This document shows, piece after piece, positions 2,928-38,375 of a stretch of 38,375 nucleotides of DNA. Numbering within the stretch: the stretch's first letter is position 1; each line of letters opens with the position of its first letter. The stretch lies in the IMG/VR virus record IMGVR_UViG_2541047847_000005. One strand, written 5' to 3'. Below the pieces are notes generated by a model. That model was not told where the DNA came from, made no database searches, and worked only from the letters and a program-made list of their open reading frames with translations. This stretch comes from a virus. Taxonomy: Duplodnaviria > Heunggongvirae > Uroviricota > Caudoviricetes. Position numbers and translations under genes: made by a program.

Positions 2928-3348
2928 GTTTTACTCCCGCAGCTCTGTGCTGCCACTTCTTCAGTTTCTCAATAACACTGCTTGCCTGTTCAGTATTGAG
3001 CCAGCGCAGGGCGCTGATGCCCGTTTCCCGCTTGATCCACCGCGCTAATGCATTTTCTGAACGGTCACGAACAATGCCGGCAGCAGCCATTTCAAGCCAT
3101 AGCGCACGAATTTTCCTGGACTGCGGATGGTTATCCAGCGGTAAACCGGAGCTGGCTTTTCTGGCTGGTTTAACGCGAAAGCCTTTCTTTTTCATGGATT
3201 CCAGCACGCAGTTTAGTTGTGTGGTATCCATTCCTTTGGTTGAGGCTTTACCGGTCAGCCCCTGTAACATCTGGCGGTAGGTGTCTTCATCCATACCCAG
3301 TTCATTACGGGCAATATGGATAAGCTGTATCAGGCGTTTTTTCTGCAT
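2899..3348 (-). CDS. gemA: GemA-like protein (Mu gp16 family)
   Basis: 149 aa; N-terminal QLIHIARNELGMDEDTYRQML motif typical of GemA; AGGAG 5 nt upstream of ATG; overlaps mor by 29 bp. Confidence 0.6.
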   Translation of the reverse strand: MQKKRLIQLIHIARNELGMDEDTYRQMLQGLTGKASTKGMDTTQLNCVLESMKKKGFRVKPARKASSGLPLDNHPQSRKIRALWLEMAAAGIVRDRSENALARWIKRETGISALRWLNTEQASSVIEKLKKWQHRAAGVKHERPESVSK

Positions 3349-3349
3349 A

Positions 3350-3556
3350 TCATCTCCTTTTTTTCAGTCTGTCGGCAACAATGTCGGTTGCAGCTGGCAG
3401 GGTGACTGGCCAGAACAACATGACGGCGGTCATGTACAGGATGTAATGCGCGGTGTCGTAGTGCCTGCCATAGCCCAGGGAACGATGAAGTCTTGCGCTG
3501 CATGATCCTGCGTACATATACCAGAAAAGAAAACAGACAATGGTTTCAGTAGTCAT
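3350..3556 (-). CDS. small membrane protein, hypothetical
   Basis: ORF 3350..3712, preferred start ATG at 3556 (MTTETIV...) with GGGGAGG upstream; hydrophobic. Confidence 0.4.
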   Translation of the reverse strand: MTTETIVCFLFWYMYAGSCSARLHRSLGYGRHYDTAHYILYMTAVMLFWPVTLPAATDIVADRLKKRR

Positions 3557-3776
3557 TCTGAATACCTCCCCATTCGATATGAATATTACGGGCAGCAATG
3601 ACAGGGTCGTTATTCCACCATGCACCTGACATGTATTTTTCAACCTGTTCGCGTCCGGCAATAACACCAATTGTGATCCCCGGCCTGACGTTCTTAAAAA
3701 AGGCGCGGGCAAAAAGGTATCTGGCAGATATTCGGCAGGCTTTTAATTTCCGGCTGTTACCTGATAGCGTAATCAT
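3546..3776 (-). CDS. hypothetical early protein (76 aa)
   Basis: ATG overlaps stop of the upstream gene (ATGA coupling at 3773..3776). Confidence 0.4.
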   Translation of the reverse strand: MITLSGNSRKLKACRISARYLFARAFFKNVRPGITIGVIAGREQVEKYMSGAWWNNDPVIAARNIHIEWGGIQNDY

Positions 3777-4682: not shown

Positions 4683-4979
4683 TTACTCGTTCGTGTAAAT
4701 CACGCCCAGTCGTGCAGCCAGACGTTCCAGTTTTTTCTGTTTGTGGAAGTCAATCAGCCGGTCCATCCCCTGAAGGCGCAGTTGCTCTGTCATGATTTCC
4801 ACGTCTGCCAGCTCTGCCGCGAGGTCACTTTCGCTGCCCTGTCCGTTCAGATTGCGGGCAGCACTGGCCGCCAGTTCAGCGGCCTCTTCTGTCAGTTTCA
4901 GGGCCTGTGCGTCCGGCCCGAAACGCTGCAGGGCCAGACGGTAGAGGGCGGTGCGGGTGAGTTCGGTGTTTCGTGTCAT
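4683..4979 (-). CDS. MazG-like nucleotide pyrophosphohydrolase-domain protein (tentative)
   Basis: 98 aa; EEAAEL ... AELADVEIM pattern resembles the EExxE...ExxD metal-binding motif of MazG-type NTP pyrophosphatases. Confidence 0.4.
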   Translation of the reverse strand: MTRNTELTRTALYRLALQRFGPDAQALKLTEEAAELAASAARNLNGQGSESDLAAELADVEIMTEQLRLQGMDRLIDFHKQKKLERLAARLGVIYTNE

Positions 4980-4988
4980 GCCGCGCCC

Positions 4989-5261
4989 TCAGTGCTTCCG
5001 GCTGACGGTGATGTGCAGGCCGCCTTCTGCAGTGGTTTCCATCCGGTACGGCACCTCATGCTCTGCCGTGTGGGTGAGTGTGTTCATCAGTACCTGCAGG
5101 GCAGCCTCCTTTCCGTTGGTCGCCACAATGGCCTGTGTGGCCATGCTGATTAGCGCCGTCAGGACGTGCTTCACATCGGTGAGGTCGCGGCATTCACACT
5201 CGTTGACATAGTGTTCAACAAGAGTTCGGGTGCGCTGTCGTGCTTCCTGTGGGGTAATCAT
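4989..5261 (-). CDS. hypothetical early protein (90 aa)
   Basis: AGGGAGG upstream of ATG at 5261; 4-bp overlap with next gene. Confidence 0.4.
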   Translation of the reverse strand: MITPQEARQRTRTLVEHYVNECECRDLTDVKHVLTALISMATQAIVATNGKEAALQVLMNTLTHTAEHEVPYRMETTAEGGLHITVSRKH

Positions 5262-5549: not shown

Positions 5550-6080
5550 TTACTGCACATCCTGCTCAAAAGGAATTATTGAAAAATCCTCAATATCACT
5601 TTTTATGGTAATACCGGGAATATTTTTCACAGCCTCTTTTTCATTCAGAATGGCATCTTTATTTATTTCCTCCTTTACACGAATAAAGCGCTCAAGCCCC
5701 AGACGTCTCAGTAATTCAATAACATTATCCGCCCCGCGAATGCTGACTGACGGCGGACGGTTTCGCCACTGCACCTCGCCGGTGGTGAGGTTAGCGAACT
5801 TCACCTTCCCGTTGCCGGTCAGTTCATCACGGTGCGCCTCACACCATGTCTGGATACCGGACTGCAGTTCGGCCATGCGTTTTTTCAGGCTCTCGGTGAG
5901 CGGGGCATAACGTGCAGTGATGTCGCCAATGGTGTCATTCATTTCTGTTTCAGCCCTGACCAGTTCACGTTGCGCGTCACCAAGCAGTCTGATTCCCTCA
6001 ATGACCTCTTCGCGTGTCCCCGGCACCCAGAGTGCTGCTGCGGCTTTGATACGTTTTGCCCCTTTTGTACTTTTTGCCAT
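5550..6080 (-). CDS. gam: Gam-like host-nuclease inhibitor (Ku-like DNA-end binding protein)
   Basis: 176 aa; colinear with Mu Gam as recalled (RIKAAAALWVP, LVRAETEMNDTIGDIT, WCEAHRDELT, VKSDIEDFSIIPFEQ). Confidence 0.85.
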   Translation of the reverse strand: MAKSTKGAKRIKAAAALWVPGTREEVIEGIRLLGDAQRELVRAETEMNDTIGDITARYAPLTESLKKRMAELQSGIQTWCEAHRDELTGNGKVKFANLTTGEVQWRNRPPSVSIRGADNVIELLRRLGLERFIRVKEEINKDAILNEKEAVKNIPGITIKSDIEDFSIIPFEQDVQ

Positions 6081-6379: not shown

Positions 6380-7546
6380 TTAAACCCCTTTGACAACGTC
6401 AGCGTTGACCTGTGGAACCCCGATTTCAGCGGCCAGATTCATGGCGGCTATTACCAGGTTACTGACGGCCAGCGGATACAGCAGGCTGACCATATTTTTA
6501 CGATGACTTCCCGGATTGCTCAGGCGGGCACGTATGGCATCCACTGCGCTGGCGTCCATAATGTCCGTCAGTTGTTTACCGGCCCGTTGCAGTTTGAACG
6601 TCAGAAACTCTTCAAGGTTATTGTCCAGAGGCAGAAGTTCGACCACCTCACAGCGCTGAACGACTTCACGGACTTCCATATTGCGTTCAGACAGTTTTGT
6701 CGCCAGTTCCGGCTGGCCAATCAGCACGATGGACAGCAGTTTTTTGAAACCGGACTCCAGCTCAAAAAAGCGTTTGAGGTGTTTCAGTGTCGGAATGGGC
6801 AGACTGTGGGCCTCCTCAATCACCAGAACGTGGCTGAACCCCGCCTGGCTGCTGTCTTTCAGGACGCGATGCAACTGGCGAAAGCGGGCGTCCTGACTGC
6901 GTCTGATGCTTTCCAGTGGTGCGATGGTACTGATAATGGCTTCGGCAATCGCTGCTGCCTTCAGGGTTTTCCCTTTCACATCGTTGTCTTCCATAGCGAT
7001 GATGTATGGCTCGATAACAATTACCGGCGCATTCTCGCGGTTGATACGTTCAGTCAGGTCGCGGCGCAGCGTGGATTTACCCGCACCGGACTCACCGATG
7101 ACGGCCATAAACCCACCATGACGGGCTGTCTGGTACAACGCCTCACGCACGTAGCGAATATCCGGGGTGGTGAACACATCATCAGAACCCTGCATGGCTT
7201 CGTCGGCGAACGGGTCACGGAAAAGACCAAACGCTTTTTTGGTTGCTGGAAATAACACCTGTTTTTTGAGTAACATATTCTCTTCCTCACTGAGGCTCGT
7301 TTTATCTGTGGTACCCGCTGTACGGGGCGTGGCCGCGCCCTGTACAGCATCAAAACTCTTCGTTGTATCAATCCCCTGACTTTCCAGCCAGGACGCAAGA
7401 CGCCGGCGCACTTCTCCGGGGCTGGTGCGGGGCCACGCGTTATGATTCACAATCTGGGCCAGCGTGGCCTCAGAAACATCGACAGCTCTCGCCACCACCG
7501 CCTGTGGAATACGGGCCTCTTTCAGTTGCTGCTTCAGTACCAGCAT
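6380..7546 (-). CDS. AAA+ transposition helper ATPase (MuB-like target DNA activator)
   Basis: ORF 6380..7585, preferred start ATG at 7546 with GGAGGGAAA upstream; Walker A GESGAGKST; Walker B-like HVLVIEEAH; immediately downstream of the transposase. Confidence 0.8.
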   Translation of the reverse strand: MLVLKQQLKEARIPQAVVARAVDVSEATLAQIVNHNAWPRTSPGEVRRRLASWLESQGIDTTKSFDAVQGAATPRTAGTTDKTSLSEEENMLLKKQVLFPATKKAFGLFRDPFADEAMQGSDDVFTTPDIRYVREALYQTARHGGFMAVIGESGAGKSTLRRDLTERINRENAPVIVIEPYIIAMEDNDVKGKTLKAAAIAEAIISTIAPLESIRRSQDARFRQLHRVLKDSSQAGFSHVLVIEEAHSLPIPTLKHLKRFFELESGFKKLLSIVLIGQPELATKLSERNMEVREVVQRCEVVELLPLDNNLEEFLTFKLQRAGKQLTDIMDASAVDAIRARLSNPGSHRKNMVSLLYPLAVSNLVIAAMNLAAEIGVPQVNADVVKGV

Positions 7547-7556
7547 GTTTCCCTCC

Positions 7557-9326
7557 TCAGTTGCCGTTAACAATGCTGATAACACTGCTGCTGGCCGGTG
7601 TGGTCAGCGTGGCCATGACTTCATCCAGTGCGGCTTCCGGTACGCCGTCCGGGTACTGTGCCGTTAACTGGCGGTAATGTTCCGGCGTCCAGGTAAGGCC
7701 GTCGGCGCTGAACTTATCGCGCAGGGCTTTCGCGGCCTCCACATGAGTCATGGGACGTTGTTCAGTGCGCGGCCCGCGTACGTCAGAGGCCTGACCACGC
7801 TTCGGCATATAGGCCGGAAGTGTGGTGTCGTCGATATGTTTATACGGGTCAAGCCGCCCGCCGAACGGCAGCGCCTTCGCCTTGCGTGCGGCGGCTGCAT
7901 CTGCGGCGTTGTCTGTACCGGTAACCAGCGCTTCAGTTTCTTTTGCCGCCATCTGTGCCGGGGTTTCCGGCAGGGCTTTGTAACTTTCGCCAAATACCGC
8001 CGCGCCTTCAGCAAAGCCAAACTCGTTCTTTCTGACCTCTTCGACCAGGAAGAACGTCTCGTGGCCGTCCTCACCGGTCAGAACCACCTGTGCCACATCG
8101 CTGCGCCATGGGTTACGGGTAATCATCAGTTTTTCACCAACCAGTACGCCCGGTACCGTTGATACGTCAAATTCAGTGCCCCGGAACGAGACACGAAGTT
8201 TTGGCGTGACTTTGCGGAGTTCTGGTGCCGCCACAGCCAGTTCACGACATACCTCAACGGAAGGCGCTTTTTTCAGCTGCTCAGCAGTAATCTTCAGCCA
8301 GATATCCGTGCGGGTTTTACCGTGGCGGCTGTGAACAGCCGTGGCGTTAAAGTGGCTGCGCCATTTCGCGGCCAGCGCGTTGAGTTCTTCCAGACTGTGA
8401 ACCGGCCGGAACTTCAGACCCGGCTCCAGCTTGCGTTCGATAATGTCCCGCGCCTTTTCCACCTGTCCGGTGGCGCGGGCGTTATGCGGCTTGTGCGCTA
8501 TCAGGTCAATGCCCAGTGAGCGGCACATGTTTTTCGTCATACCCGCGGTGTTTGCCGAGCCGGGGTCGAGATAGAGTATTTTTGGCACGCCGTGCAGCAC
8601 GTCTGCGCCGCCACGCTCCTGCATGGCGTTGATAAGCACAGAACACAGGTTCTCACCGGATTCCGCACCCGTCACATACTCAACGTAAATCCAGCCGCTG
8701 GCATGGTCGGTAATCTCATAACTCCACACGCGGTCACTGGCGATACGGGCAAGGTTAGCGGGCTTGTTCTTGTAGAATTTCGCGCTGTCCATCACCTGCA
8801 GCCCTTTGTGTCCATTGCTCAGGTAGTAAAGCGTGCAGAGCGAGGCATCAATCTGCCAGACGTGATTGGGATGCAGACTGGCCACTTCGGTATGCGGCGC
8901 AGGGGCATCCAGTTGTTCCGGGTGCAGGCCATAGTTACGCAGGGCACGGCTGATGGCATCTTCGGACAACGGGAAAAACTCACCGGTGGTTTCATCTGTT
9001 CTGCCTGCGGAGATAAAGCCGTTAGCCCGCAGGGTTTCCACTGCATCTGCGATGGAATAGAGACGCTTACCGTTCTTGCGGGTGGCCTCACGCAGTGTGG
9101 CAGATATCAGCGCGGCTTCGTCGCGGGTCAGGGCGCTGCGCCCGGCATCGGCGCGTTTTTTGCGTTTATCAGTCACAGAGACCTCCTTCAGCCTGCGCAG
9201 CAGAGTGGCGCGGGACATGCCAAGTTCAGCACAGGCAGCGTCGTATATTGCACCGCGTTTACCATGCCCCGCGTCACGTGCCGCGCGGGCGACATAAACC
9301 AGTCGTTCAGTCAGGGCAGCATTCAT
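7557..9326 (-). CDS. DDE transposase (Mu A-like, integrase-core fold)
   Basis: 589 aa; N-terminal HTH region; candidate DDE residues in WQIDAS, LYLDPGSAN and GQVEKARDIIE; GGAGG upstream. Confidence 0.85.
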   Translation of the reverse strand: MNAALTERLVYVARAARDAGHGKRGAIYDAACAELGMSRATLLRRLKEVSVTDKRKKRADAGRSALTRDEAALISATLREATRKNGKRLYSIADAVETLRANGFISAGRTDETTGEFFPLSEDAISRALRNYGLHPEQLDAPAPHTEVASLHPNHVWQIDASLCTLYYLSNGHKGLQVMDSAKFYKNKPANLARIASDRVWSYEITDHASGWIYVEYVTGAESGENLCSVLINAMQERGGADVLHGVPKILYLDPGSANTAGMTKNMCRSLGIDLIAHKPHNARATGQVEKARDIIERKLEPGLKFRPVHSLEELNALAAKWRSHFNATAVHSRHGKTRTDIWLKITAEQLKKAPSVEVCRELAVAAPELRKVTPKLRVSFRGTEFDVSTVPGVLVGEKLMITRNPWRSDVAQVVLTGEDGHETFFLVEEVRKNEFGFAEGAAVFGESYKALPETPAQMAAKETEALVTGTDNAADAAAARKAKALPFGGRLDPYKHIDDTTLPAYMPKRGQASDVRGPRTEQRPMTHVEAAKALRDKFSADGLTWTPEHYRQLTAQYPDGVPEAALDEVMATLTTPASSSVISIVNGN

Positions 9327-11326: not shown

Positions 11327-11357
11327 CCGGAAAGCATTGTGCTTTCCGGTTTTGTTT
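11327..11357 (+). terminator. rho-independent terminator downstream of repressor gene
   Basis: perfect 10-bp stem CCGGAAAGCA / TGCTTTCCGG with 3-nt loop followed by TTTTGTTT; abuts the stop codon of the convergent methyltransferase gene. Confidence 0.6.
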
Positions 11358-12121
11358 CAGAAGTTGCAGATTACCAGTTCACGGCGCGGCGTGGATTTCC
11401 CCGCCAGACTGTAGTTGATGTTCACTGTCTGTATGTTCAGTCCAGTGAACACCTCGCGCATCTGTGGGATATCGTTCACCGAAATTATCATTTTTCCTCT
11501 GATGCACCGGGCCAGCTCTGCCAGCCGCGAGTAGTTCCCTTCAGGAAAATCCACACCATAGCCTTCCGTACCCAGGTACGGTGGGTCGCAGTAGAACAGT
11601 GTGTGCGGACGATCATAACGCTCAATGCACTGTTGCCAGTCCATGTGTTCTATGACTGTTCTGGAAAGCCGCAGGTGTGCTGCTGACAGTTCTTCTTCAA
11701 TACGCAGCAGGTTGAAGCGTGGCGGGGATGTGGTGGAGGTACCGAAGCTGTGCTCTGCCACCTTGCCGCCAAACGCCTGCTTCTGAAGGTAGTAGAACCG
11801 TGCCGCACGCTGGATATCCGTCAGTGTTTCTTCCGGGGTGATCTGCAGCCATTTGTAGATCTGACGGCTGACCAGCGCCCATTTGAACTGGCGGACAAAT
11901 TCTTCCAGGTGATGCTTTACCACCCGGTACAGATTCACCAGTTCACCGTTGATATCATTGATGACTTCGATCTTGCCGGGTGTCTTAAGAAAATAGAGCG
12001 CTGCTGCCCCACAAAACGGCTCCACATAACATTCATGCGCCGGAAACAGCGGCAGGATGTGTTTTGCCAGGCGACGTTTGCCACCAATCCATGGAACGAT
12101 GGGTAATGTCTTCATTTTCAT
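11357..12121 (-). CDS. orphan Dam-class (D12) N6-adenine DNA methyltransferase
   Basis: 254 aa; motif I FCGAAALYF and motif IV DPPY; no adjacent restriction endonuclease gene. Confidence 0.85.
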   Translation of the reverse strand: MKMKTLPIVPWIGGKRRLAKHILPLFPAHECYVEPFCGAAALYFLKTPGKIEVINDINGELVNLYRVVKHHLEEFVRQFKWALVSRQIYKWLQITPEETLTDIQRAARFYYLQKQAFGGKVAEHSFGTSTTSPPRFNLLRIEEELSAAHLRLSRTVIEHMDWQQCIERYDRPHTLFYCDPPYLGTEGYGVDFPEGNYSRLAELARCIRGKMIISVNDIPQMREVFTGLNIQTVNINYSLAGKSTPRRELVICNF

Positions 12122-16690: not shown

Positions 16691-18210
16691 CGGAGCTGCC
16701 GCCGCACATTCCTGACACCGCGAGTTATAAGGCCCCTCCCGTTCTGTTGCCCTACCAGCAGCGCTGGGTGGCAGATGCCTCTCCGCTTAAGGTGATAGAA
16801 AAGAGCCGTCGTACCGGTATTACATGGGCTGAGGCATCCGATAACGTACTGACCGCCGCCTCTTCTGCGCCAGCAGGCGGGATGAATGTGTATTACATCG
16901 CTTATAACCAGGACATGACCGTCGAATACATTCAGGCGTGTGCGATGTGGGCACGGGCATTCAACTATGCGGCCAGTGAAATTGAAGAAGGATTCTGGGA
17001 AGAGGACGACGACGACAAACACATCAGGACTTACACCATCAAATTTCCTGACTCCGGCTTTCGTATTGTTGCGCTCTCCAGCCGCCCGTCTAACCTGCGT
17101 GGCCGTCAGGGTATTATTGTTATCGACGAAGCGGCGTTCCATGAGCAACTGGACGAACTGCTGAAAGCGGCGCTGGCGATGCTTATCTGGGGGGGAAAGG
17201 TACGCGTTATCTCCACCCATGACGGTGACGACAATCCGTTCAATACGCTTATCGGGGATATCCGTGCCGGACGTCAGGGAGGCAGCGTACATCGCATTAC
17301 TTTCCGGGAAGCCGTATCTGAGGGGCTGTTCCGGCGCGTTTGTCTGCGCACCGGGAAGGAATGGTCGGAGGCATCCGAGCAGGCCTGGATGGCGTCGGTG
17401 TACAAATTCTACGGTGCCGGTGCATCCGAAGAGCTTGACTGTATTCCGGCCAACGGTGGCGGTGCCTGGCTGTCCCGAGCCCTGATAGAGTCCCGCATGT
17501 CCGCTGATACGCCGGTATTGCGTCTGACCTGCAAGGAAGGTTATGAACTGCTGTCTGATGAGGTTCGCTTCCGCGAGACGCAGGACTGGCTTGATGAGCA
17601 TCTGAAACCATTACTGGAGGCGCTCCCCGCTGGTGCCCGCTCTTTTCTGGGGCGTGACTTTGGCCGTAGCGGGGATTTGTCGGTGGACTACCCGTTGTTG
17701 CAGGAGAAGAACCTGATACGACGCGTGCCATTCGTACTGGAGTTGCGTAACGTGCCGTTCAGGCAGCAGGAGCAAATCACCTGGTATCTGATGGATGGCC
17801 TGCCCGGTCTGCTGGGTGCAGCGTTTGATGCCCGTGGTAATGGTGCCTATCTGGCTGAATACGCCATGCAGCGCTACGGCTCCGGCCGGGTTCAGCAGGT
17901 GATGCCAACCGAAGGCTGGTACCGGGAGCATATGCCTCCGGTCAAAGCTGCACTGGAAGACGGTAACCTGGTGGACTTACCAAAGGATGAAGACACACTG
18001 GATGACCTGCGGGCCGTTCAGGTGGTGAACGGTGTCCCCCGCGTGCCGGAGCAACGCTCAAAAGCAAAGGCTGATGGTGGTAAACGTCACGGGGATTCAG
18101 CCATCGCACTGGCGCTGGCGTATTTCGCCAGCCGTGAAATTAACAAAGGGCCGGTGAAGGCAAGCTCACGCCGTCGTCGTCAGGCGGCCCGCATGCTGGA
18201 GGGGTACTGA
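16687..18210 (+). CDS. terminase large subunit (Mu gp28-like)
   Basis: 507 aa; ATPase-like N-terminal region (GIIVIDEAAF) and nuclease-like C-terminal region; position before portal. Confidence 0.8.
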   Translation: MTELPPHIPDTASYKAPPVLLPYQQRWVADASPLKVIEKSRRTGITWAEASDNVLTAASSAPAGGMNVYYIAYNQDMTVEYIQACAMWARAFNYAASEIEEGFWEEDDDDKHIRTYTIKFPDSGFRIVALSSRPSNLRGRQGIIVIDEAAFHEQLDELLKAALAMLIWGGKVRVISTHDGDDNPFNTLIGDIRAGRQGGSVHRITFREAVSEGLFRRVCLRTGKEWSEASEQAWMASVYKFYGAGASEELDCIPANGGGAWLSRALIESRMSADTPVLRLTCKEGYELLSDEVRFRETQDWLDEHLKPLLEALPAGARSFLGRDFGRSGDLSVDYPLLQEKNLIRRVPFVLELRNVPFRQQEQITWYLMDGLPGLLGAAFDARGNGAYLAEYAMQRYGSGRVQQVMPTEGWYREHMPPVKAALEDGNLVDLPKDEDTLDDLRAVQVVNGVPRVPEQRSKAKADGGKRHGDSAIALALAYFASREINKGPVKASSRRRRQAARMLEGY

Positions 18211-19706
18211 TGGCTAAAGGTATCTGGGTTTCACCCGATGAATTTGTTGCTTTTTCTGAGCCTCAGAAATCACTGACCGCGCAGATTGCCTCCCGCAGCC
18301 GCGCGATCGACTTTTACGGACTGGGCATGTATCTGCCCAATCCTGATCCCATTCTCAAGGCTCAGGGACGGGATATCCGTATCTACCGCGAACTGCGCAC
18401 CGACCCGCTGGTCGGGGGCTGTATCCGCAGACGTAAAGCAGCGCTTAAATCGCTGGAGCGTGGACTGGAGCGTGGTCACGCCTCTGCCCGGGTCTTCCGT
18501 TTCATCCGCGACATGCTCGACGATCTGGATCTGTCCCGCATCATCGGTGAAATGAGCGATGCCGTGCTCTACGGGTATCAGCCCTGTGAAATCATGTGGG
18601 GCCGTTCGGTCAGGTCGTGGGCGGTGACGGATATTGTCGGCAAACCGCCTGAGTGGTTTCAGTTTGATACGGACAACTGCCTGCGCTTCCGGGCGCGTGA
18701 TGCGGGTGTGGAGGGTGAGCTGCTGTCACCGTCAAAATTCGTGGTGCCGGCACAGGATGCCTCGTATGACAATCCTTACGGTTTCCCGGACCTGTCCATG
18801 TGCTTCTGGCCGGTCGCCTTCAAGAAAGGCGGGATGAAATTCTGGCTCCGCTTTGCCGAAAAGTTTGGCTCCCCGTGGGTGATCGGTAAGCACCCGAGGG
18901 GGGCAAATGATGCAGAGATTGAAAAACTGCTGGACTCCATGGAGCAGATGGTGGAGGACGCGGTGGCCGCCATCCCCGATGACAGCAGCATCGAACTCAA
19001 AGCCGCGGATGGTAAGGCGGACAGCAGCGAGGTATTCCGCGAGCTGATCACACTGTCACGCAGTGAGATCTCCATTGCATTACTTGGTCAGAATCAGACC
19101 ACGGAAGCGAACAGTAACAAGGCCTCTGCACAGGCCGGGCTGGAGGTAACGGCTGATATCCGCGATGCGGATGCGGACATCATTCAGGCAGCAGTGAATC
19201 AGGTTATCAGAACGGTGGTCACCCTGAACTTCGGCGATGTGCCGTGTCCGGTCTGGGCCATGTGGGAACAGGAGACCATTGATGACACCCGCGCCACCCG
19301 CGACGAAAAACTCACCCGGGCGGGTCTGCGTCTGACCCCGCAATACTTTAAGCGTGAGTACCAGCTGCAGGACGGCGATATTGACGAGACACCACCGTCG
19401 GAACGCCAGAATAACATGCTGCCGCTGTCATTTGCCGAGGCGATTGATGCCGATATTCAGGCTCAGCAGCAGCTTGACGACGCGCTGGACATTCTGATGA
19501 ACGGAGGTGTGTTAAATGGCACGCTGGAACCCGTCCTGGCACCTCTGTTTAAGCGGGTCGAAAACGGGGTTAACCCGACTGAGCTGCTGGGCGAACTGGC
19601 GGAGCTCTACCCTCAGATGAACACGGACGATCTGCAGGAACGGCTGGCCCGTATTCTCTTTGTGGCAAATATCTGGGGACGTCTGCATGAGCGTGACAAC
19701 GGCTGA
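18210..19706 (+). CDS. portal protein (Mu gp29-like)
   Basis: 498 aa; follows large terminase with ATGA overlap; size and position typical of a Mu-type portal. Confidence 0.8.
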   Translation: MAKGIWVSPDEFVAFSEPQKSLTAQIASRSRAIDFYGLGMYLPNPDPILKAQGRDIRIYRELRTDPLVGGCIRRRKAALKSLERGLERGHASARVFRFIRDMLDDLDLSRIIGEMSDAVLYGYQPCEIMWGRSVRSWAVTDIVGKPPEWFQFDTDNCLRFRARDAGVEGELLSPSKFVVPAQDASYDNPYGFPDLSMCFWPVAFKKGGMKFWLRFAEKFGSPWVIGKHPRGANDAEIEKLLDSMEQMVEDAVAAIPDDSSIELKAADGKADSSEVFRELITLSRSEISIALLGQNQTTEANSNKASAQAGLEVTADIRDADADIIQAAVNQVIRTVVTLNFGDVPCPVWAMWEQETIDDTRATRDEKLTRAGLRLTPQYFKREYQLQDGDIDETPPSERQNNMLPLSFAEAIDADIQAQQQLDDALDILMNGGVLNGTLEPVLAPLFKRVENGVNPTELLGELAELYPQMNTDDLQERLARILFVANIWGRLHERDNG

Positions 19707-27590: not shown

Positions 27591-30500
27591 ATGTCGGGAC
27601 AGTTTTCAGTCGGCGTTGTTATCGGCGGGATGATTGGCAGCACATTCCGTTCTGCAATGAGCGGTACCCGCCGTGCGCTTGATTCCCTGAGCGATACCTC
27701 ACGCCGCCTGCAGGAACGTCAGAACGCTTTAACCCGTGCAACAGAACGTTATGGTCAACTGGGTTCTTCCCGGATGCAGCATCTCAACAGCGAGCTGCTG
27801 CGGGTAAGCCGCACCATGGAGCAAATTGAGCGCCAGCAGCGCCGTCTGTCAGCGGCATCCGCTACCAGTGATGCGCTGAAAGCTAACCGCATGGCGCTGT
27901 ATGGTCAGGGGATTGAAGCGTATGGCATGGCTCAGACTGTTTATCATACGGTTTCCCCTGCCGTTCAGCAGTCCATGTTTTTTCAGGACAAAATGATTGA
28001 TATGTCGATCACCGCAAAATATGACAATAAAACGCGGGATGCACTTGCCGGACAGATAAAAGGCTGGGCGCTTAAATACAATCAGTATCAGGATGAGCTG
28101 CAGGAGGCGGTGGGTTCACTCATCAGCGACAATATTGATAATGTGTCAGATATCGGTTTTCTGATGCCGGATATTGCCCGCGCGGCAACGGCAACACGCA
28201 CGTCTGCTCAGGACTGGGCAAAAGTGGCCGCAGTCTGGCAAAACTCCCTGAAAGGTGCGGCCAGAGATTTTGGTGCCGTTCAGAATATTATGGCTTATGC
28301 CGGTGACCAGGGGTCATTTGAAATCCCGGATCAGGTCAAGTGGATGCAGTCCCTGGCCCCAATGATGGCGGGTATTGCCAGTGGAAAAGAGGCTGTTGCT
28401 GAAATCGGGGCCAGTCTCCAGATAGCAAAAATCGGTGCAGGTTCCACCGACGAAGCAGCCAATAATTTTAAAAACTTTCTTACCAAAATTTTTGCCCGCG
28501 ATACTCAGAAACAGTTTGCTGATCTGGGTATTGATTTGCAGGGATCTATTGCGAGTTATAAAGCTGCGGGGATCTCTCCGATTGAAGGGATGTTGAGTGT
28601 TATAGAACGTTACCTCAATGCCAAAAGCCCCGAAGCGCTGGCCGGCTTCAAATCCGCCATGAAAATAAAGAATGATACGGCAAGAGATGAGGCACTTCAG
28701 GCTCTGGCGAAAAACTTTGGTCTGGGTGATATGTTCGCGGATATGCAGGTCATGGCATTTATCCGCCCGATGCTGGCCAACATGGACAGATATCGCGAGA
28801 TCCGCGCCGGTGCTCTCAGGGCTGCGGATAACGATTTGCTTGCCAGTGCTTATGATCAGCGGCTGAAATCTCCCCTTGAAGCCACTAAAACACTTATGGT
28901 CAGCAGTCGCGATCTGGCAATTACGCTGGGCGATCAATTAGCTCCATCTTTTATTTCTTTGACTCAGGAACTGCTTCCACTCATTCAGGGGGCAAAACAC
29001 TGGGTAGCGACTCACCCGCAATTTGTCAGTGGGGCTTTTAAGCTCATCAGTGCGCTCCTTGCGATTAAGATAGCGACTGTTGGTCTCAAACTGGGGCTGA
29101 ATCTCCTTATTTCCCCCTTTGTGAACGTCTGGAAAACTACTGTTTTACTCCGGACCAACTGGCATCGACTGGCTACCGCACTCGGAGAAGGTGGCAAATT
29201 ACGCTGGCTTGTCACTGGATTCAGCCGACTGACCAGCGGAGGACTGAAACTCAGCAAAGTTCTGGCGGGCAGCCTCGTTCGCGGTTTTATGAGCGCTGCA
29301 CGTGCCGTTCTCTGGATTGGGCGAGCGCTGATGATGAATCCCATCGGTCTCGTTATCACCGCTGTCGCGGCAGCAGCTTACCTTATCTACCGCAACTGGG
29401 GGGCTGTCAGTGGTTGGTTTAAACAGCGCTGGGCTGACATTCAGGAAGCCTTTAACGGCGGCATTGTGGGAATTGGTAAGTTGCTGATTAACTGGTCGCC
29501 GGCAGGCCTGCTCTATAAAGCCTTTGCGGCTGCGCTGAAATATTTCGGCGTTGCTCTGCCGGCAAAGTTCACCGACTTCGGTGGCCATCTTATCGACGGT
29601 CTGATTAACGGTATCAAAAACAAATGGGGGTCGCTCAAATCCAGTGTAACCGGAATGGGTGACAGCATCAGTAGCTGGTTTAAACAGTGCTGGGCTGACA
29701 TTCAGGAAGCCTTTAACGGCGGCATTGTGGGAATTGGTAAGTTGCTGATTAACTGGTCGCCGGCAGGCCTGCTCTATAAAGCCTTTGCGGCTGCGCTGAA
29801 ATATTTCGGCGTTACTCTGCCGGCAAAGTTCACCGACTTCGGTGGCCATCTTATCGACGGTCTGATTAACGGTATCAAAAACAAATGGGGGGCGCTCAAA
29901 TCCAGTGTAACCGGAATGGGTGACAGCATCAGTAGCTGGTTTAAACAGTGCTGGGCTGACATTCAGGAAGCCTTTAACGGCGGTATCGCGGGAACTGGTA
30001 AGCTGCTGATTAACTGGTCGCCGGCAGGTCTGCTCTATAAAGCCTTTGCAGCTGCGCTGAAATATCTTGGTGTTGATCTGCCGGCAAAGTTTACCGACTT
30101 CGGTGGCCATCTTGTCGATGGTCTGATTAACGGTATCAAAAACAAATGGGAGTCGCTCAAATCCAGTGTAACCGGAATGGGTGACAGCATCAGTGGCTGG
30201 TTCAGCGAAAAGCTGGGCATTCATTCGCCGAGCCGCGTGTTTATGGGCTTTGGTGACAATATCGCGCAGGGGGCCGCCATTGGCCTGCAGCGGACCACTC
30301 CGCTTGTAGCTCTGGCCGGGCAGCGAATGGCCAGTGAACTGCTCCCCAGAATGCCCGTGAGCATTCAGGGGCCAGAAATACGGGATAACACTTCAGGTGT
30401 TCGCTTCAGTATGCCGTTGCCCGATATCAATGGGTTTATGTCGTCTGCTAAAAATGCGATCGGAGCCGTAATCAATAGTTTGTCTTCCATGCCCGCTATT

Positions 30501-30803
30501 CCGCTCTCCACCCGGGCATCGATTTTACCAGGGCAACGTCTGGCAAATGAGATGACACCGGATGTTCCCCGTATCCCCTCGCCTGAAATCCTGGCTGCCG
30601 GATATTCAGGCCGTGGTGCAGCTGCAACCGGCGGTGGAACGTCTGGTGGTATCCAGGTCAGCTTTAATCCTCAGTTTTTCCTCAATGGCAGGGAAACCAC
30701 AGCGCCTGCAGGACTGACTGGTGCCCTGAATATGAGTCTGCATGAGCTGGAAAAAATGCTGGAGCGTCTGCTGGCTCAGAAACAACGTAAGGAGTACCGC
30801 TGA
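27591..30803 (+). CDS. tail tape measure protein with internal tandem triplication
   Basis: 1070 aa; GGAGG upstream; long helical protein after the chaperone genes; contains 3 near-identical 87-aa repeats. Confidence 0.9.
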   Translation: MSGQFSVGVVIGGMIGSTFRSAMSGTRRALDSLSDTSRRLQERQNALTRATERYGQLGSSRMQHLNSELLRVSRTMEQIERQQRRLSAASATSDALKANRMALYGQGIEAYGMAQTVYHTVSPAVQQSMFFQDKMIDMSITAKYDNKTRDALAGQIKGWALKYNQYQDELQEAVGSLISDNIDNVSDIGFLMPDIARAATATRTSAQDWAKVAAVWQNSLKGAARDFGAVQNIMAYAGDQGSFEIPDQVKWMQSLAPMMAGIASGKEAVAEIGASLQIAKIGAGSTDEAANNFKNFLTKIFARDTQKQFADLGIDLQGSIASYKAAGISPIEGMLSVIERYLNAKSPEALAGFKSAMKIKNDTARDEALQALAKNFGLGDMFADMQVMAFIRPMLANMDRYREIRAGALRAADNDLLASAYDQRLKSPLEATKTLMVSSRDLAITLGDQLAPSFISLTQELLPLIQGAKHWVATHPQFVSGAFKLISALLAIKIATVGLKLGLNLLISPFVNVWKTTVLLRTNWHRLATALGEGGKLRWLVTGFSRLTSGGLKLSKVLAGSLVRGFMSAARAVLWIGRALMMNPIGLVITAVAAAAYLIYRNWGAVSGWFKQRWADIQEAFNGGIVGIGKLLINWSPAGLLYKAFAAALKYFGVALPAKFTDFGGHLIDGLINGIKNKWGSLKSSVTGMGDSISSWFKQCWADIQEAFNGGIVGIGKLLINWSPAGLLYKAFAAALKYFGVTLPAKFTDFGGHLIDGLINGIKNKWGALKSSVTGMGDSISSWFKQCWADIQEAFNGGIAGTGKLLINWSPAGLLYKAFAAALKYLGVDLPAKFTDFGGHLVDGLINGIKNKWESLKSSVTGMGDSISGWFSEKLGIHSPSRVFMGFGDNIAQGAAIGLQRTTPLVALAGQRMASELLPRMPVSIQGPEIRDNTSGVRFSMPLPDINGFMSSAKNAIGAVINSLSSMPAIPLSTRASILPGQRLANEMTPDVPRIPSPEILAAGYSGRGAAATGGGTSGGIQVSFNPQFFLNGRETTAPAGLTGALNMSLHELEKMLERLLAQKQRKEYR
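29415..30197 (+). repeat. 3 tandem copies of a 261-bp in-frame repeat inside the tape measure gene
   Basis: repeat units start at 29415, 29676 and 29937 (TGGTTTAAACAG...); each encodes WFKQ.WADIQEAFNGGI...KNKW..LKSSVTGMGDSIS with few substitutions. Confidence 0.9.
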
Positions 30804-35130: not shown

Positions 35131-35701
35131 GCCATTACAACTCCCGCCACCGCTTGAGGGTGATATCAGTCTCAGGACGCTGGGAAGACTGGCAGGACGG
35201 CTGGATAACATCGACCTGAGCGTACTGATGGTCTTTCTCGTCGATATCGTCGACAGTTCCGCGCTGCCATGGCTGGGCGAGCAGTTCTCACTGTCTGGCG
35301 ATGGCTGGGAGCTGGCGGAATCGGACGATGTTCGCCGCATGCTTATAAAAGCAGCCATCGAACTGCACCGGTATAAAGGGACGCCGTGGTCAATCCGGGA
35401 AGTTATCCGCCGTTTTGGCTTTGGTGAAGTGGATCTGATTGAAGGCACAGGTCGTCTCAGTTACGACGGCAATCGCAGCTATAACGGACTGTTTGTTCAT
35501 GGAGATGCAGCCGCCTGGGCAGTTTATCGCGTTATTCTGAAACAGCCCATTACTAACGATCAGGCCGCGATGCTGCGTCAGACGCTGGCTGCATTTGCAC
35601 CGGCCCGCTGCCATCTGGCCAGCCTGGAGTATCAGTCTGTGGCCATTCGCTATAACAATACTGCCATCCATGATGGCAGTTATAACCACGGGAGCAGTTG
35701 A
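35123..35701 (+). CDS. tail protein I (P2 gpI-like)
   Basis: 192 aa overlapping J and the fibre gene. Confidence 0.7.
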   Translation: MTEPLQLPPPLEGDISLRTLGRLAGRLDNIDLSVLMVFLVDIVDSSALPWLGEQFSLSGDGWELAESDDVRRMLIKAAIELHRYKGTPWSIREVIRRFGFGEVDLIEGTGRLSYDGNRSYNGLFVHGDAAAWAVYRVILKQPITNDQAAMLRQTLAAFAPARCHLASLEYQSVAIRYNNTAIHDGSYNHGSS

Positions 35702-35703
35702 TT

Positions 35704-37299
35704 ATGGGAAACCTGAATGAAACAGAAAAGTGGGAAGAAAATATCTATCAACTGGAGACATCAGATCCGGTTCTGGGTGGTGCAGACGGGATATCAAATC
35801 GAGCCCCCCGGCAACTGGCAAACAGGACGAAATGGCTGAAGAAGAAAACGGAGGAAGCCGCACAGTCACTGGCTGAACACGTACGTTCCCGTAACCACCC
35901 GGACGCGACACTGACAGCTAAGGGGTTCACCCAACTGAGCAGTGCCACCAACAGCACCTCTGAAACGCTGGCCGCCACACCAAAAGCGGTCAAGGCTGCA
36001 TACGACCTGGCAGCCGGCAAGGCGCCTGCCAGCCACACTCACCCGTGGAGTCAGATAACGGGAGTGCCTGCGGCTTCACTGACGGCAAAAGGCACCGTAC
36101 AACTGAGCAGCGCCACGGACAGTCAATCAGAAACTGAGGCTGCCACGCCGAAGGCTGTGAAAATCGCGTATGATCTGGCCCGGGGAAAATACACAGCCCA
36201 GGATGCAACAACGACCCGTAAAGGGATCGTACAACTGAGCAGTGCCATCAACAACACGTCTGAAACGCTGGCCGCTACACCGAAAGCTGTCAAGGCTGCA
36301 TATGACCTGGCTAACGGGAAGTACACAGCCCAGGATGCAACCACGACACAAAAAGGGATAGTTCAGCTCAGTAGCGACACCAACAGCACTTCTGAAACAT
36401 TAGCTGCAACTCCAAAAGCGGTTAAAGCTGCATACGATCTAGCAGCCGGAAAGGCACCATCCAGTCATACACATCCCTGGAATCAGATCACTGGTGTGCC
36501 AACAGCTTCATTGACAGCGAAAGGCATCACTCAGCTCAGTAGTGCCACTAACAGCACGTCTGAAGTGCTGGCCGCTACACCGAAAGCTGTCAAGGCTGCA
36601 TACGATCTGGCAAACGGAAAACAACCGGCAGATGCCACGCTCACTGCTCTGGCAGGACTTGCCACTGCAGCAGATCGGGTGCCTTATTTTACCGGAGCAG
36701 ACCGCGCAGCGCTGGCAACCCTTACAGCTATTGGTCGCGCTATTATCGCTAAGGGCAGTATAAAAGATGTCCTCAATTACCTTGGTTTAGGAGAAGGCTC
36801 GGCGCTACCCGTTGGTGTGCCTGTTCCATGGCCCACCGCCACGCCGCCAGCAGGCTGGTTGAAGTGCGACGGGCGCGCCTTTACAAAAGAACAATATCCT
36901 GTTCTGGCCAGAGCCTACCCGACCCTCCGTCTTCCCGATTTACGCGGTGAGTTTATCCGTGGATGGGACGACGGGCGCAAAGTTGATACAGGACGTAAGT
37001 TGCTGTCCGCACAAGGGGCAACGCTGTTAAGAACAGCAATGCTGGATTATTATAACCAGGACACTACGGGAACCTCGGGGATAGTCGGCATGGGATTCAA
37101 CAATGAAGATTCCATTACAGACCTTCGTGAGGGCAGCTTTAAAATGCCGGACGGGACAACATTCAGCGATCCTGTCGTGGCAATGTCAGACAATGGTATG
37201 CAGGCTACTATTCTGACCTCTATCAGAAGCGGGTATGCGAAGGGTATCACTGTCAGACCCCGTAGCATTGCACTTAATTACATTGTGAGGGCAGTTTAA
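35704..37299 (+). CDS. tail fibre protein with 5 tandem fibre repeats and collar-like C-terminal domain
   Basis: ORF 35698..37299 (TTG at 35698, ATG at 35704 with GGGAG upstream); repeats of the form KG.TQLSSATNSTSETLAATPKAVKAAYDLA.GK; C-terminal PDLRGEFIRGWDDGR motif. Confidence 0.85.
   Translation: MGNLNETEKWEENIYQLETSDPVLGGADGISNRAPRQLANRTKWLKKKTEEAAQSLAEHVRSRNHPDATLTAKGFTQLSSATNSTSETLAATPKAVKAAYDLAAGKAPASHTHPWSQITGVPAASLTAKGTVQLSSATDSQSETEAATPKAVKIAYDLARGKYTAQDATTTRKGIVQLSSAINNTSETLAATPKAVKAAYDLANGKYTAQDATTTQKGIVQLSSDTNSTSETLAATPKAVKAAYDLAAGKAPSSHTHPWNQITGVPTASLTAKGITQLSSATNSTSEVLAATPKAVKAAYDLANGKQPADATLTALAGLATAADRVPYFTGADRAALATLTAIGRAIIAKGSIKDVLNYLGLGEGSALPVGVPVPWPTATPPAGWLKCDGRAFTKEQYPVLARAYPTLRLPDLRGEFIRGWDDGRKVDTGRKLLSAQGATLLRTAMLDYYNQDTTGTSGIVGMGFNNEDSITDLREGSFKMPDGTTFSDPVVAMSDNGMQATILTSIRSGYAKGITVRPRSIALNYIVRAV
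35908..36620 (+). repeat. 5 tandem imperfect repeats (about 35-45 codons each) inside the tail fibre gene
   Basis: recurring TPKAVKAAYDLA and QLSSATNSTSE peptide motifs; approximate boundaries. Confidence 0.6.
36889..36980 (+). repeat. left copy of 92-bp near-perfect inverted repeat inside fibre gene
   Basis: reverse complement of 38200..38291 with 1 mismatch; flanked by lower-identity homology from about 36811. Confidence 0.8.
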
Positions 37300-37913
37300 T
37301 GAGTAACACTGCAGTTCTGGATGAAAACGGTATCGCCACTGTAGCGGGCGATATCACTGTATATCACTATGACGAGGAAACCCGGGAATACACCTCATCC
37401 TCTGTGGAGTATCTCGCCCTTGGGGTGGGTACTCCGGCACATTCGTGCGCCGATGCACCGCCGGAGGCAATTTCGGGTTACGTGGTTTGCCGGACTGCCA
37501 CGCTGAACGGGTGGGAGCATGTGCCTGATCACCGCGGCGAGACGGTATACAGCACGGAGAACGGTAACCCCGTTCTGATTACCCAACCGGGTGATTACCC
37601 GGCGGACACCACCACAAAACAGCCAGCCACGCCATGGGATACCTGGAACGGTGAGGCGTGGGTAACCGATACTGAACGGCAGCGAACCGCAGAGCTGGAG
37701 ACTGCCAGACTGCAACGCCAGAAACGGGTGGATCAGGCGATGAAGTCCATCGACCTCATCAACCTCAAACTGCGGGCAGGTCGCAGTCTGAAACCAGAAG
37801 AAACGGCAAAACTGAACGCCGTGCTGGATTATATCGACGAGCTGAACGCACTGGATATCAGCACGGCACCTGAAATCAGCTGGCCGGAAGCGCCACTGGC
37901 ACTTGCCAGTTGA
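37299..37913 (+). CDS. tail fibre assembly protein (Tfa)
   Basis: 204 aa; TAATG overlap with fibre gene; C-terminal APEISWPEAP motif typical of Tfa chaperones. Confidence 0.75.
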   Translation: MSNTAVLDENGIATVAGDITVYHYDEETREYTSSSVEYLALGVGTPAHSCADAPPEAISGYVVCRTATLNGWEHVPDHRGETVYSTENGNPVLITQPGDYPADTTTKQPATPWDTWNGEAWVTDTERQRTAELETARLQRQKRVDQAMKSIDLINLKLRAGRSLKPEETAKLNAVLDYIDELNALDISTAPEISWPEAPLALAS

Positions 37914-37919
37914 ACGGTA

Positions 37920-38375
37920 TCACGCCGCCCTCACGATATAGTTAAACGCGATATTGCGGGGGCGGGTTATGTTAAAGAATGCTCCGTTTAATTCGGCTTT
38001 TGCGCGACTGTTTGTTCCACCCAGCATTGCGTACCACAAATAATCGCTACGGTAATTCCCCGCAAACACCTTATCGCCGCCATAGTCAATATTATTTCCG
38101 TTACTCATGTACGAGATATCAAGCGCAGAATCGTTATCGTCATGACCGCCGACCAGTGTACCTTTCTGCCATGAAAGCAACTTACGCCCCTCGTCAATCT
38201 TGCGCCCGTCGTCCCATCCACGGATAAACTCACCGCGTAAATCGGGAAGACGGAGGGTCGGGTAGACTCTGGCCAGAACAGGATATTGTTCTTTGGTGAA
38301 CGTAGCTCCGTTGCACTGTAACCAGCCTGCTGGCGGTGTGGCGGTGGGCCATGGAACCGGTACACCAACAGGCAA
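37920..38375 (-). CDS. alternative tail fibre C-terminal module on opposite strand (5-prime end beyond window)
   Basis: translation shares about 70 aa (PVGVPVPWPTATPPAGWL...PDLRGEFIRGWDDGRK) with the plus-strand fibre and ends with the same NYIVRA tail; ORF is open to the window edge. Confidence 0.6.
   Translation of the reverse strand: MPVGVPVPWPTATPPAGWLQCNGATFTKEQYPVLARVYPTLRLPDLRGEFIRGWDDGRKIDEGRKLLSWQKGTLVGGHDDNDSALDISYMSNGNNIDYGGDKVFAGNYRSDYLWYAMLGGTNSRAKAELNGAFFNITRPRNIAFNYIVRAA
38200..38291 (-). repeat. right copy of 92-bp near-perfect inverted repeat
   Basis: reverse complement of 36889..36980. Confidence 0.8.

Follow-up and report, generated by a model that had tools for sequence, protein, structure and literature searches.

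Most of a probable Din-family tail-fibre inversion switch, with a single tfa gene between alternative tips, at the right end of a BcepMu-like E. coli prophage

The window, a 38,375-nt stretch of DNA from a virus of the class Caudoviricetes (IMG/VR record IMGVR_UViG_2541047847_000005), ends on its right with a tail-fibre gene, a tail-fibre assembly gene and an opposite-strand reading frame. These genes, together with the repeats and the recombination site found among them, are as follows.

35704..36782, plus strand: constant 5' part (Sc) of the tail-fibre gene, with an N-terminal attachment region and five Phage_fiber_2 shaft repeats
36770..36795, plus strand: left 26-bp crossover site, TCCTCAATTACC TT GGTTTAGGAGAA, with its central dinucleotide at 36782-36783; it lies within the fibre frame and encodes ..LNYLGLGE..
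36784..37299 (stop included), plus strand: expressed variable module Sv1, with a Collar domain (Pfam E 1e-15), a variable tip and the conserved C-terminus RPRSIALNYIVRAV
36808..37007, plus strand: left arm of an inverted repeat, including the core 36886-36980; conserved N-terminal Collar part of the module
37299..37913, plus strand: single tail-fibre assembly gene tfa (Pfam Caudo_TAP, E 7e-27), with a start that overlaps the stop of Sv1; the invertible segment pivots on it
37920..38375, minus strand: silent alternative module SvA, with a Collar domain (Pfam E 1e-15), a different tip and the C-terminus RPRNIAFNYIVRAA
38173..38372, minus strand: right arm of the inverted repeat, from a repeat search and base-by-base comparison

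Sc is identical to the RefSeq coding sequence of the related locus L001; it matches PF03406 five times (E 2e-96) and contains direct repeats of 124 nt at 35898-36621. Sv1 is homologous to the collar of the T4 gp37 tip (2xgf, E 5e-14) and belongs to a module cluster (cluster 4) that is invariably attached to tfa. The SvA frame has 151 aa in the window and runs into its edge, the first 8 codons and a crossover site lying just beyond the end. A preliminary description of this DNA had proposed that the fibre gene and the minus-strand frame carry homologous C-terminal modules with only one Tfa gene between them. Both points were borne out: the two modules are homologous, and 37299-37913 is the single Caudo_TAP gene between them. 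A sequence search of the PDB with Tfa gave no match.

The element that hosts these genes carries an rve transposase, Mu Gam and a Mu portal protein, and its early genes run leftward. The insertion sites of the prophage differ between genomes and disrupt genes. A relative, PhiKM, is classed as a Bcepmuvirus; its fibre gene is rearranged in the partial record available.

The sole Din-type site in the window, 36770-36795, exactly matches the published Phi2_5prime site of E. coli EC958 (PMC4134206). In the related loci L094, L002 and L001, an inverted partner site, also with a central TT, is located 10-35 nt beyond the position of the window end, so that two 26-bp, imperfectly dyad-symmetric, inverted sites with equal central dinucleotides are present when the left site of the window is taken together with the right site of its relatives. 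For the window, we predict the partner at 10-35 nt past the end on the minus strand, with the sequence GAGAGATAAACG TT GGTTTGGGGGAA, and a 573-nt invertase gene beginning about 90 nt past the end. The window stops 10 nt short of this site, and we infer both the site and the invertase from relatives whose identity to the final 1.1 kb of the window reaches 100%. Among 192 candidate modules, each consisting of a site and a reading frame, in 92 related loci, 189 have a central TT and an inner half-site GGTTT[GA]GG[GA]GAA. Crossover at the TT is predicted to generate in-frame fusions for both alternative modules, and the predicted fusions also exist as intact annotated genes in other genomes.

In L001, L002, L003, L005, L094 and L096, the last module has an invertase gene as its immediate right-hand neighbour. 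The product, a serine recombinase of about 190 aa with Pfam Resolvase and HTH_7 domains, is encoded in all close relatives, outside the window. It matches the Gin structures 4m6f/3uj3 (E 2e-93 over 181 aa) and shares about 77% identity with Mu Gin; its catalytic serine falls within the motif YIRVSTNDQ, which aligns with YVRVSTNDQ in Gin. The preliminary description had suggested looking to the right for a serine invertase gene and the rest of the minus-strand frame. Both were found in the relatives, including L094, which is 100.0% identical to the window over 37250-38375 (the last 1126 nt), whereas the window itself ends 90 nt before the position of the L094 invertase ATG. The first 240 nt of the invertase gene have 77% nucleotide identity to gin, and two Fis-like G-N13-C 15-mers, at nt 94 and nt 140, are conserved between the two genes, with a spacing of 46 nt versus the canonical 48. 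Support for a putative Fis-dependent enhancer is limited to this 5'-end identity and the two 15-mers. When species-representative genomes were scanned with the invertase, 5 loci were detected, mostly at contig ends.

Inversion of this segment has occurred in nature. The E. coli strains SK0189 and SK1144 bear the same prophage at the same insertion site, with a 1620-bp block inverted between them at 99.94% identity. Their inner half-sites are exactly swapped, which puts the breakpoints in the 26-bp sites, with the repeat core about 100 nt further downstream. AR_0067, in which tfa and Sv1 are on the minus strand, has exactly the flip that was predicted, and the fusion of Sc to SvA is colinear in 103 E. 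coli genomes. Forde et al. 2014 (PMC4134206) described identical sites in prophage Phi2 of E. coli ST131 EC958 and observed its two orientations in PacBio reads; in the EC958 culture, about half of the PacBio reads had each orientation at Phi1, and a contig with the alternative orientation was assembled for Phi2 (PMC4134206). The sites, the neighbouring invertase in relatives and the occurrence of both orientations in nature support the earlier proposal of a Gin/Cin/Pin-type invertible tail-fibre switch. The evidence for both orientations comes from these other strains and from the published EC958 reads.

Taken together, these findings make it very probable that the window contains most of a Din-family (Gin/Pin/Cin/Min-type) inversion switch at the right end of a BcepMu-like transposable E. 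coli prophage. In the mechanism that we propose, the serine invertase would pair the site at 36770-36795 with the inverted copy 10-35 nt beyond the window end, cut each of them in its central TT, rotate the cut ends and rejoin them, so that about 1.6 kb with Sv1, tfa and SvA is inverted. In the fibre, the final ~170 codons, comprising the Collar domain and the receptor-binding tip, would be exchanged in frame for the alternative module, and a changed receptor specificity would be expected from the tip exchange. The catalytic details and a dependence on Fis and an enhancer are assigned here by homology with Gin and Hin, and a change of host range upon inversion is likewise presumed. Invertase-driven swapping of fibre tips is textbook host-range bet-hedging of temperate phages.

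It is unlikely that the switch in this genome is a fossil with a missing or defective invertase or partner site and no autonomous flipping. The window does end before both of these elements, and related prophages include defective invertases, one truncated in EC958 Phi4 (PMC4134206) and one annotated as split Hin1/Hin2 in vB_EcoM-813R1. However, the nearest relatives (99-100% identical) encode an intact invertase of 190 aa, WP_000904922, and Din invertases act in trans on heterologous sites (PMC4134206).

We then considered the inverted repeat inside the segment. The repeat search yielded arms of 200 nt (36808-37007 and 38173-38372) that are 88% complementary, with 1165 nt between them; this length and identity are far above chance expectation, so a shuffle test was unnecessary. 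Both arms code for the N-terminal Collar domain (PF07484) of the two homologous C-terminal modules, and the arm homology reaches left to 36784, abutting the 26-bp site. The repeat is the common N-terminal coding part of both modules, within the invertible segment. Base-by-base comparison agreed with the preliminary description that 36889-36980 and 38200-38291 are identical but for one base, the mismatch being at 36914. The full near-identical run is 36886-36980 (95 nt, one mismatch), and the 78 nt flanking it (36808-36885) have 15 mismatches. The 92-bp core was rejected as a conserved nucleotide element, as its third-codon-position conservation across 168 unique module starts did not exceed that of the other positions in the N-terminal 200 nt.

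Such a repeat might suggest that RecA-type homologous recombination between the 200-nt arms drives both inversion and homogenisation, the invertase being incidental. A near-perfect inverted repeat of 95 nt is long enough for homologous recombination. Moreover, the N-terminal regions evolve in concert within loci, with a nucleotide identity in the arm region of 0.888 within a locus versus 0.807 between loci, and mosaic N-termini exist, as in CE10, in which SvA bears an Sv1-type N-terminus. These two observations indicate that some homologous exchange or gene conversion does happen. As the motor of inversion, however, it is very improbable: the natural flip between SK0189 and SK1144 exchanged sequence exactly at the 26-bp sites, the ~189 modules all keep the central TT, which only a site-specific mechanism needs, and the read proportions in EC958 (PMC4134206) imply a flipping rate far above that of homologous inversion.

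Even less credible is a crossover by the invertase within the 92-bp core, with the core as its footprint, as the preliminary description had it. The core is the best-conserved stretch between the arms in the window, and it opens with a partial dyad, the 16-mer GAACAATATCCTGTTC (36889-36904), at or near which the exchange would take place. This dyad is retained in just 42 of the 189 family modules, whereas the 26-bp site is present in nearly all, and it was rejected as a recombination site. Strand exchange between SK0189 and SK1144 maps to the TT of the 26-bp sites with exact exchange of half-sites, the published EC958 junctions are the same 26-bp sites (PMC4134206), and third-position conservation of the core is not raised across the family. 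Thus, of the interval reported earlier, 36808-38375, the repeat stands, but the placement of the crossover does not; the true site is upstream of the reported start. The 95-nt core is best read as a recent, locus-specific gene-conversion tract inside the invertible segment and not as a recombinase site. As a practical caution, the near-identical core of a repeat should not be taken for the recombination site.

The remaining alternative in the preliminary description, that a different element to the right has a complete fibre gene of its own, with the minus-strand frame as its 3' end, draws on the lower-identity homology that continues to the window edge but has hardly any probability left, because the L094 invertase starts 90 nt past that edge and, in all relatives, homology stops at the crossover site and is followed by a spacer of about 55 bp, the invertase gene and host DNA.

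The inversion switch proposed here is of a type already known, and the window adds an instance, not a principle. It has been documented in EC958 Phi2 (Forde et al. 2014, PLoS One 9:e104400, PMC4134206), a prophage of the same family with an identical gpI protein, the identical invertase WP_000904922 and 26-bp sites identical to those here (TCCTCAATTACCTTGGTTTAGGAGAA and GAGAGATAAACGTTGGTTTGGGGGAA). As in the window, Phi2 combines a Phage_fiber_2 constant part with Collar modules, and its segment contains an imperfect inverted repeat about 200 bp long. Phi2 has two silent modules in a 2067-bp segment, whereas the window most likely has one in about 1615 bp, as in CE10 and B771, and the silent modules of the two are of different types. 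PMC4134206 portrays the alternate alleles as mirror-image, with a cognate gene for the minor fibre; this description fails for both Phi2 and the window, each of which has one tfa.

The sites also share the 12+2+12 design of the 26-bp sites of the Mu G segment, including the inner half GGTTTA..GAA, although the central dinucleotide is TC in Mu (gix, TTATCCAAAACC TC GGTTTACAGGAA) and TT here. In Mu, as here, the site is in the fibre gene where constant and variable parts meet, and the invertase gene directly adjoins the right side of the segment, the right end of a transposable phage being the location in both cases. The 3-kb segment of Mu holds two variable parts, each with its own Tfa in mirror image (S-U, S'-U'), whereas a single tfa forms the pivot here; the tips here are short (~150-170 aa) gp37-like Collar modules, unlike the S-type tips of Mu, on a BcepMu-like backbone. 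The mirror-image design of Mu G, P1 C and e14 P (S-U and U'-S') is therefore not what we found, as there is one Caudo_TAP gene, which is antisense when flipped.

The C segment of P1, inverted by Cin, contains inverted repeats of about 0.6 kb, and the cix sites are located at the outer ends of these repeats. This is the geometry of the 200-nt repeat here; P1 differs in having two Tfa genes (U, U') and just two sites. The collar cassette is also found in P1-like phage-plasmids. The Min system of the P1-related plasmid p15B, studied by Sandmeier, Iida and Arber in 1990-1992, reportedly comprises a 3.5-kb region with six crossover sites and several alternative fibre 3' ends. In the relatives of the window, which include P1-like elements, as many as 9 modules occur, and every module has a site. 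More than two sites are present in many relatives, among them L001, L005 and L096 (three each) and L081 (9 modules); the 100%-identical B771 has two only. Inversion at an internal site is documented. R64-type shufflons likewise shuffle several short alternative C-terminal modules of an adhesin-like protein by inversion, but they use a tyrosine recombinase (Rci) and 19-bp sfx sites. Membership in this group was rejected, since the recombinase in the relatives is a serine resolvase/invertase.

Across the 92 related loci, the cassette has 1-9 collar modules. In about 45 of the loci there is a single tfa, always between the plus- and minus-strand modules, and 18 have two Tfa genes. Because it is always at the pivot, tfa is turned over by every inversion. 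The preliminary description had anticipated that a single Tfa gene would leave the alternative tip with none downstream in the inverted state; in AR_0067, the flipped state does place tfa antisense, downstream of the alternative tip. We also examined a possible hidden mirror gene antisense to tfa (ORF 37395-37715, 106 aa) and rejected it: this frame is open only in tfa of the Phi2 type and is broken in diverged Tfa types, the longest stretches being 38-63 aa.

The same Tfa type (at least 90% identical) is encoded after 7 different module types, certain module types are found both attached to tfa and free, and the C-terminus RPRN[IV]AFNYIVRA is common to all modules. Tfa probably serves all collar modules as a generic chaperone, and the association of one Tfa type with 7 module types and the common C-terminus suggest that all tips need the chaperone. 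A simple sigma-70 scan for a promoter of antisense tfa found none in the window at 35600-38375 or, in L001, in the spacer that separates the right site from the invertase. By eye, we noted an extended -10-like motif, TGAGATAAT, on the minus strand of this spacer; the spacer differs between invertase subtypes, and the motif was therefore not relied on. Given that tfa is antisense in the flipped state and that no rescuing promoter was found, one state of the switch may be non-productive. If all tips need the chaperone, it is conceivable, though we hold it only tentatively and think it rather doubtful, that in two-module loci such as that of the window, where the alternative tip can be expressed solely with tfa antisense, the switch acts as a parity ON/OFF control of fibre assembly, or that an undescribed supply of Tfa exists. 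Candidate supplies are a promoter that works in either orientation, transcription running leftward from the side of the invertase, and complementation by the Tfa of resident prophages.

For annotation, these results mean that silent "phage tail protein" fragments are cassettes, each having a 26-bp site, and that the stop-codon region of one cassette forms the outer half of the site of the next. The design extends across the family, with up to 9 cassettes of at least 28 types in BcepMu-like prophages and P1-like phage-plasmids, and with one pivot chaperone gene. If it is true instead that most collar modules fold without Tfa, that would also be new for this fibre class. The single tfa at the pivot thus turns the chaperone requirement of gp37-like tips into a testable question, which matters for engineering tips to retarget host range.

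A repeat search of the window located two 200-nt arms of an inverted repeat, at 36808-37007 and 38173-38372, with 88% complementarity, both of which are coding sequence. Base by base, 36886-36980 differed from the partner arm only at 36914, and 15 mismatches occurred in the 78 nt preceding this near-identical stretch. The genes concerned are as follows:

35704-37299, plus strand: fibre gene, whose Collar domain comes after five Phage_fiber_2 repeats
37299-37913, between the two Collar modules: tfa, the tail-fibre assembly (chaperone) gene and the sole Caudo_TAP gene there
37920-38375, minus strand: second Collar module (151 aa), an open frame

The inverted repeat, the homologous modules and the lone tfa were thus borne out as first described. 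The fibre shaft consists of five diverged 124-nt repeat units with 132- or 168-nt spacing (35898-36621); fibre gene lengths among close relatives (1596 nt in the window, 1629 in AR_0067, 1932 in SK0189 and 2064 in B771) suggest that these repeats expand and contract.

Close relatives are common, with a match in 929 of 5426 complete E. coli genomes. We examined the right flank in six relatives (Z0117EC0117, CE10, AR_0067, EC958, B771 and SK0189), all of which encode a 190-aa "recombinase family protein" about 55 bp past the last minus-strand module. Another complete minus-strand fibre gene, which the preliminary description had offered as an alternative, does not hold in any relative. This Gin-like serine invertase has Resolvase and HTH_7 domains and aligned with crystallised Mu Gin over 181 residues (E 2e-93, roughly 77% identity). 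In B771, 100.0% identical to window 37250-38375, a 26-bp site lies 10 nt, and the recombinase ATG 90 nt, beyond the point matching the window end. B771 also carries an ogr/Delta-like zinc-finger gene (P2-type late activator) between the invertase and host ybjL (4965-5183 of its locus); in the other relatives this gene is missing from that position, and the invertase is followed by host DNA.

A site scan of the window found one crossover site of this type, TCCTCAATTACC-TT-GGTTTAGGAGAA, in the fibre gene at 36770-36795, upstream of the interval 36808-38375 to which the switch had been assigned. In the relatives, an inverted GAGAGATAAACG-TT-GGTTTGGGGGAA adjoins the invertase, and those with a second silent module have an extra site, CGCATAAAAACG-TT-GGTTTGGGGGAA, between modules. 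Mu gix, which the Mu record gives as TTATCCAAAACC TC GGTTTACAGGAA, is built on the same 12+2+12 plan as these sites. With strand exchange at the central TT, either silent module is predicted to be fused in frame to the constant part (...VLNYLGLGEGSALPVGVPVPWP...).

A synthetic flipped junction, joining the constant 5′ part of the fibre gene (Sc) to the silent minus-strand module (SvA), had a colinear match in 103 E. coli genomes when at least 80% of its length had to be covered; in each of the 25 matches listed, coverage was 98-100%. The arrangement in AR_0067 is exactly the one that flipping should give: the Sc+SvA fibre gene on the plus strand, tfa and Sv1 (the module expressed in the window) on the minus strand, and the invertase on the plus strand. 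The sharpest evidence of flipping is the pair SK0189 and SK1144, which carry the same prophage at a common insertion site (ssuB/pepN). Between colinear flanks, a block of 1620 bp lies in opposite orientations in the two strains, at 99.94% identity. The inner half-sites are polymorphic, and GGTTTAGGAGAA and GGTTTGGGGGAA have traded places between the fibre site and the middle one, showing that an internal site is used and that strands are exchanged at the central dinucleotide of the 26-bp sites, not where the crossover had been placed initially. The same two 26-bp sequences are given as the crossover sites of EC958 Phi2 by Forde et al. 2014 (PMC4134206), who describe an invertible segment of 2067 bp and an imperfect inverted repeat of 227 bp; in their PacBio data, the alternative orientation assembled into a contig of its own. 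The invertase protein of EC958 Phi2 (WP_000904922) is identical to that of the nearest relatives of the window. The proposed switch is a genuine Din/Gin-type invertible tail-fibre switch, with both orientations seen in relatives, and it is already known, essentially the same system having been published. In CE10 (8203-8668 of its locus) and EC958 (3203-3652), the fibre constant part is annotated as pseudogene fragments and the cassette and invertase are intact; the switch can keep flipping in a prophage with a dead fibre gene.

The 92-bp core of the repeat, taken at first for a footprint of the inversion system, is part of the segment that inverts and is about 100 nt away from the point of crossover. 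In a comparison of 168 unique module starts (92 loci), third codon positions were no better conserved in the core (0.65-0.80) than elsewhere in the N-terminal 200 nt, and the 16-mer dyad at the core start was kept in only 42 of 189 modules. Identity of the N-terminal region was 0.888 within a locus versus 0.807 between loci, and the CE10 SvA module has an N-terminus of the Sv1 type. From these comparisons, the best explanation of the core is a tract left by recent gene conversion or homologous exchange between two inverted copies of one conserved domain, a product of concerted evolution and no recombinase footprint. The geometry is similar to that of the P1 C segment, in which 0.6-kb inverted repeats lie inside the segment, with the sites at the outer ends of the repeats.

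Using tblastn, we placed the modules, Tfa and the invertase on 80 viral contigs with 84-100% identical invertases; about 45 loci had a single Tfa and 18 had two. Most of the 18 show the classical mirror arrangement, the partner being a non-collar one, and a few are aberrant (L054, L090). L054 has two Sv-Tfa units, and within the cassettes of L079 and L090 a piece of the fibre constant part lies inverted; these arrangements probably arose by recombination between co-resident switches or by deletion/duplication. All single-Tfa loci fit the layout Sc (m+)n T(+/-) (m-)k invertase. Their modules number 1 to 9 in total, each with its own site, and the outer half of a site between two modules consists of the final codons and stop of the module before it (...GCCGCATAAAAACG). 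Plus sites all lie left of tfa and minus sites all right, so each allowed inversion spans and flips tfa; where the constant part was visible, tfa was sense in 14 loci and antisense in 9. The inverted state with no Tfa gene downstream of the alternative tip, pointed out at first for the window, is thus a family rule and not peculiar to the window. Very large cassettes occur on some viral contigs, with 9 modules in L081, 8 each in L088 and L078, and 7 in L091, where the locus is truncated, each module again with its own site.

At 85% identity, at least 28 module types can be told apart, which makes for a shufflon-like repertoire with a serine invertase driving it. Every module ends in RPRN[IV]AFNYIVRA, some types occur both immediately upstream of tfa and as free cassettes, and one Tfa type (≥90% identical) stands behind seven different module types. 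The Collar part is homologous to the T4 gp37 tip collar (2xgf, E 5e-14). Published work on Mu Tfa, as summarised in PMC9608196, assigns binding of the distal part of the fibre to the N-terminal domain and trimerisation to the C-terminal domain. Together these points favour one generic chaperone that would recognise invariant parts of all collar modules. A sigma-70 promoter scan of window 35600-38375, and of the spacer ahead of the invertase in relative L001, found none able to express tfa when antisense to the late operon, nor was a conserved gene found antisense to tfa. In such states, free modules may fold without Tfa; antisense tfa may be transcribed by means invisible in the sequence, or Tfa supplied by other prophages; or the particles may be fibre-defective.

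The window is a transposable BcepMu-like prophage, with P2/Mu-type tail genes and the following:

5550-6080, minus strand: Mu Gam
6380-7585, minus strand: AAA ATPase
7557-9326, minus strand: rve transposase
18210-19706, plus strand: Mu-type portal

Its first 1026 nt are a host solute-binding-protein gene. The relatives' insertion sites differ and disrupt resident genes (rfaH, fliZ, ssuB, next to aroA, inside a lambdoid prophage), and the relative PhiKM is classed in Bcepmuvirus. The early region encodes a D12-class N6-adenine DNA methyltransferase (11357-12121, minus strand). The tape-measure gene (27591-30803) contains three tandem 261-bp units of 95% identity at 29407-30202 (87-aa repeats), and its homologue in L001 is annotated as incomplete; repeat copy number, and with it tail length, may be variable.

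In the complete E. coli genome search, 920 of 4333 matching places were on plasmids. Plasmid p1_000837 (92.5 kb) and Punavirus vB_EcoM-813R1 both have the same collar-module/tfa/invertase cassette following a P1-type tail-fibre operon. In P1-like phage-plasmids, the cassette reaches up to 99% nucleotide identity, indicating that the whole switch has been exchanged between BcepMu-like prophages and P1-like elements.
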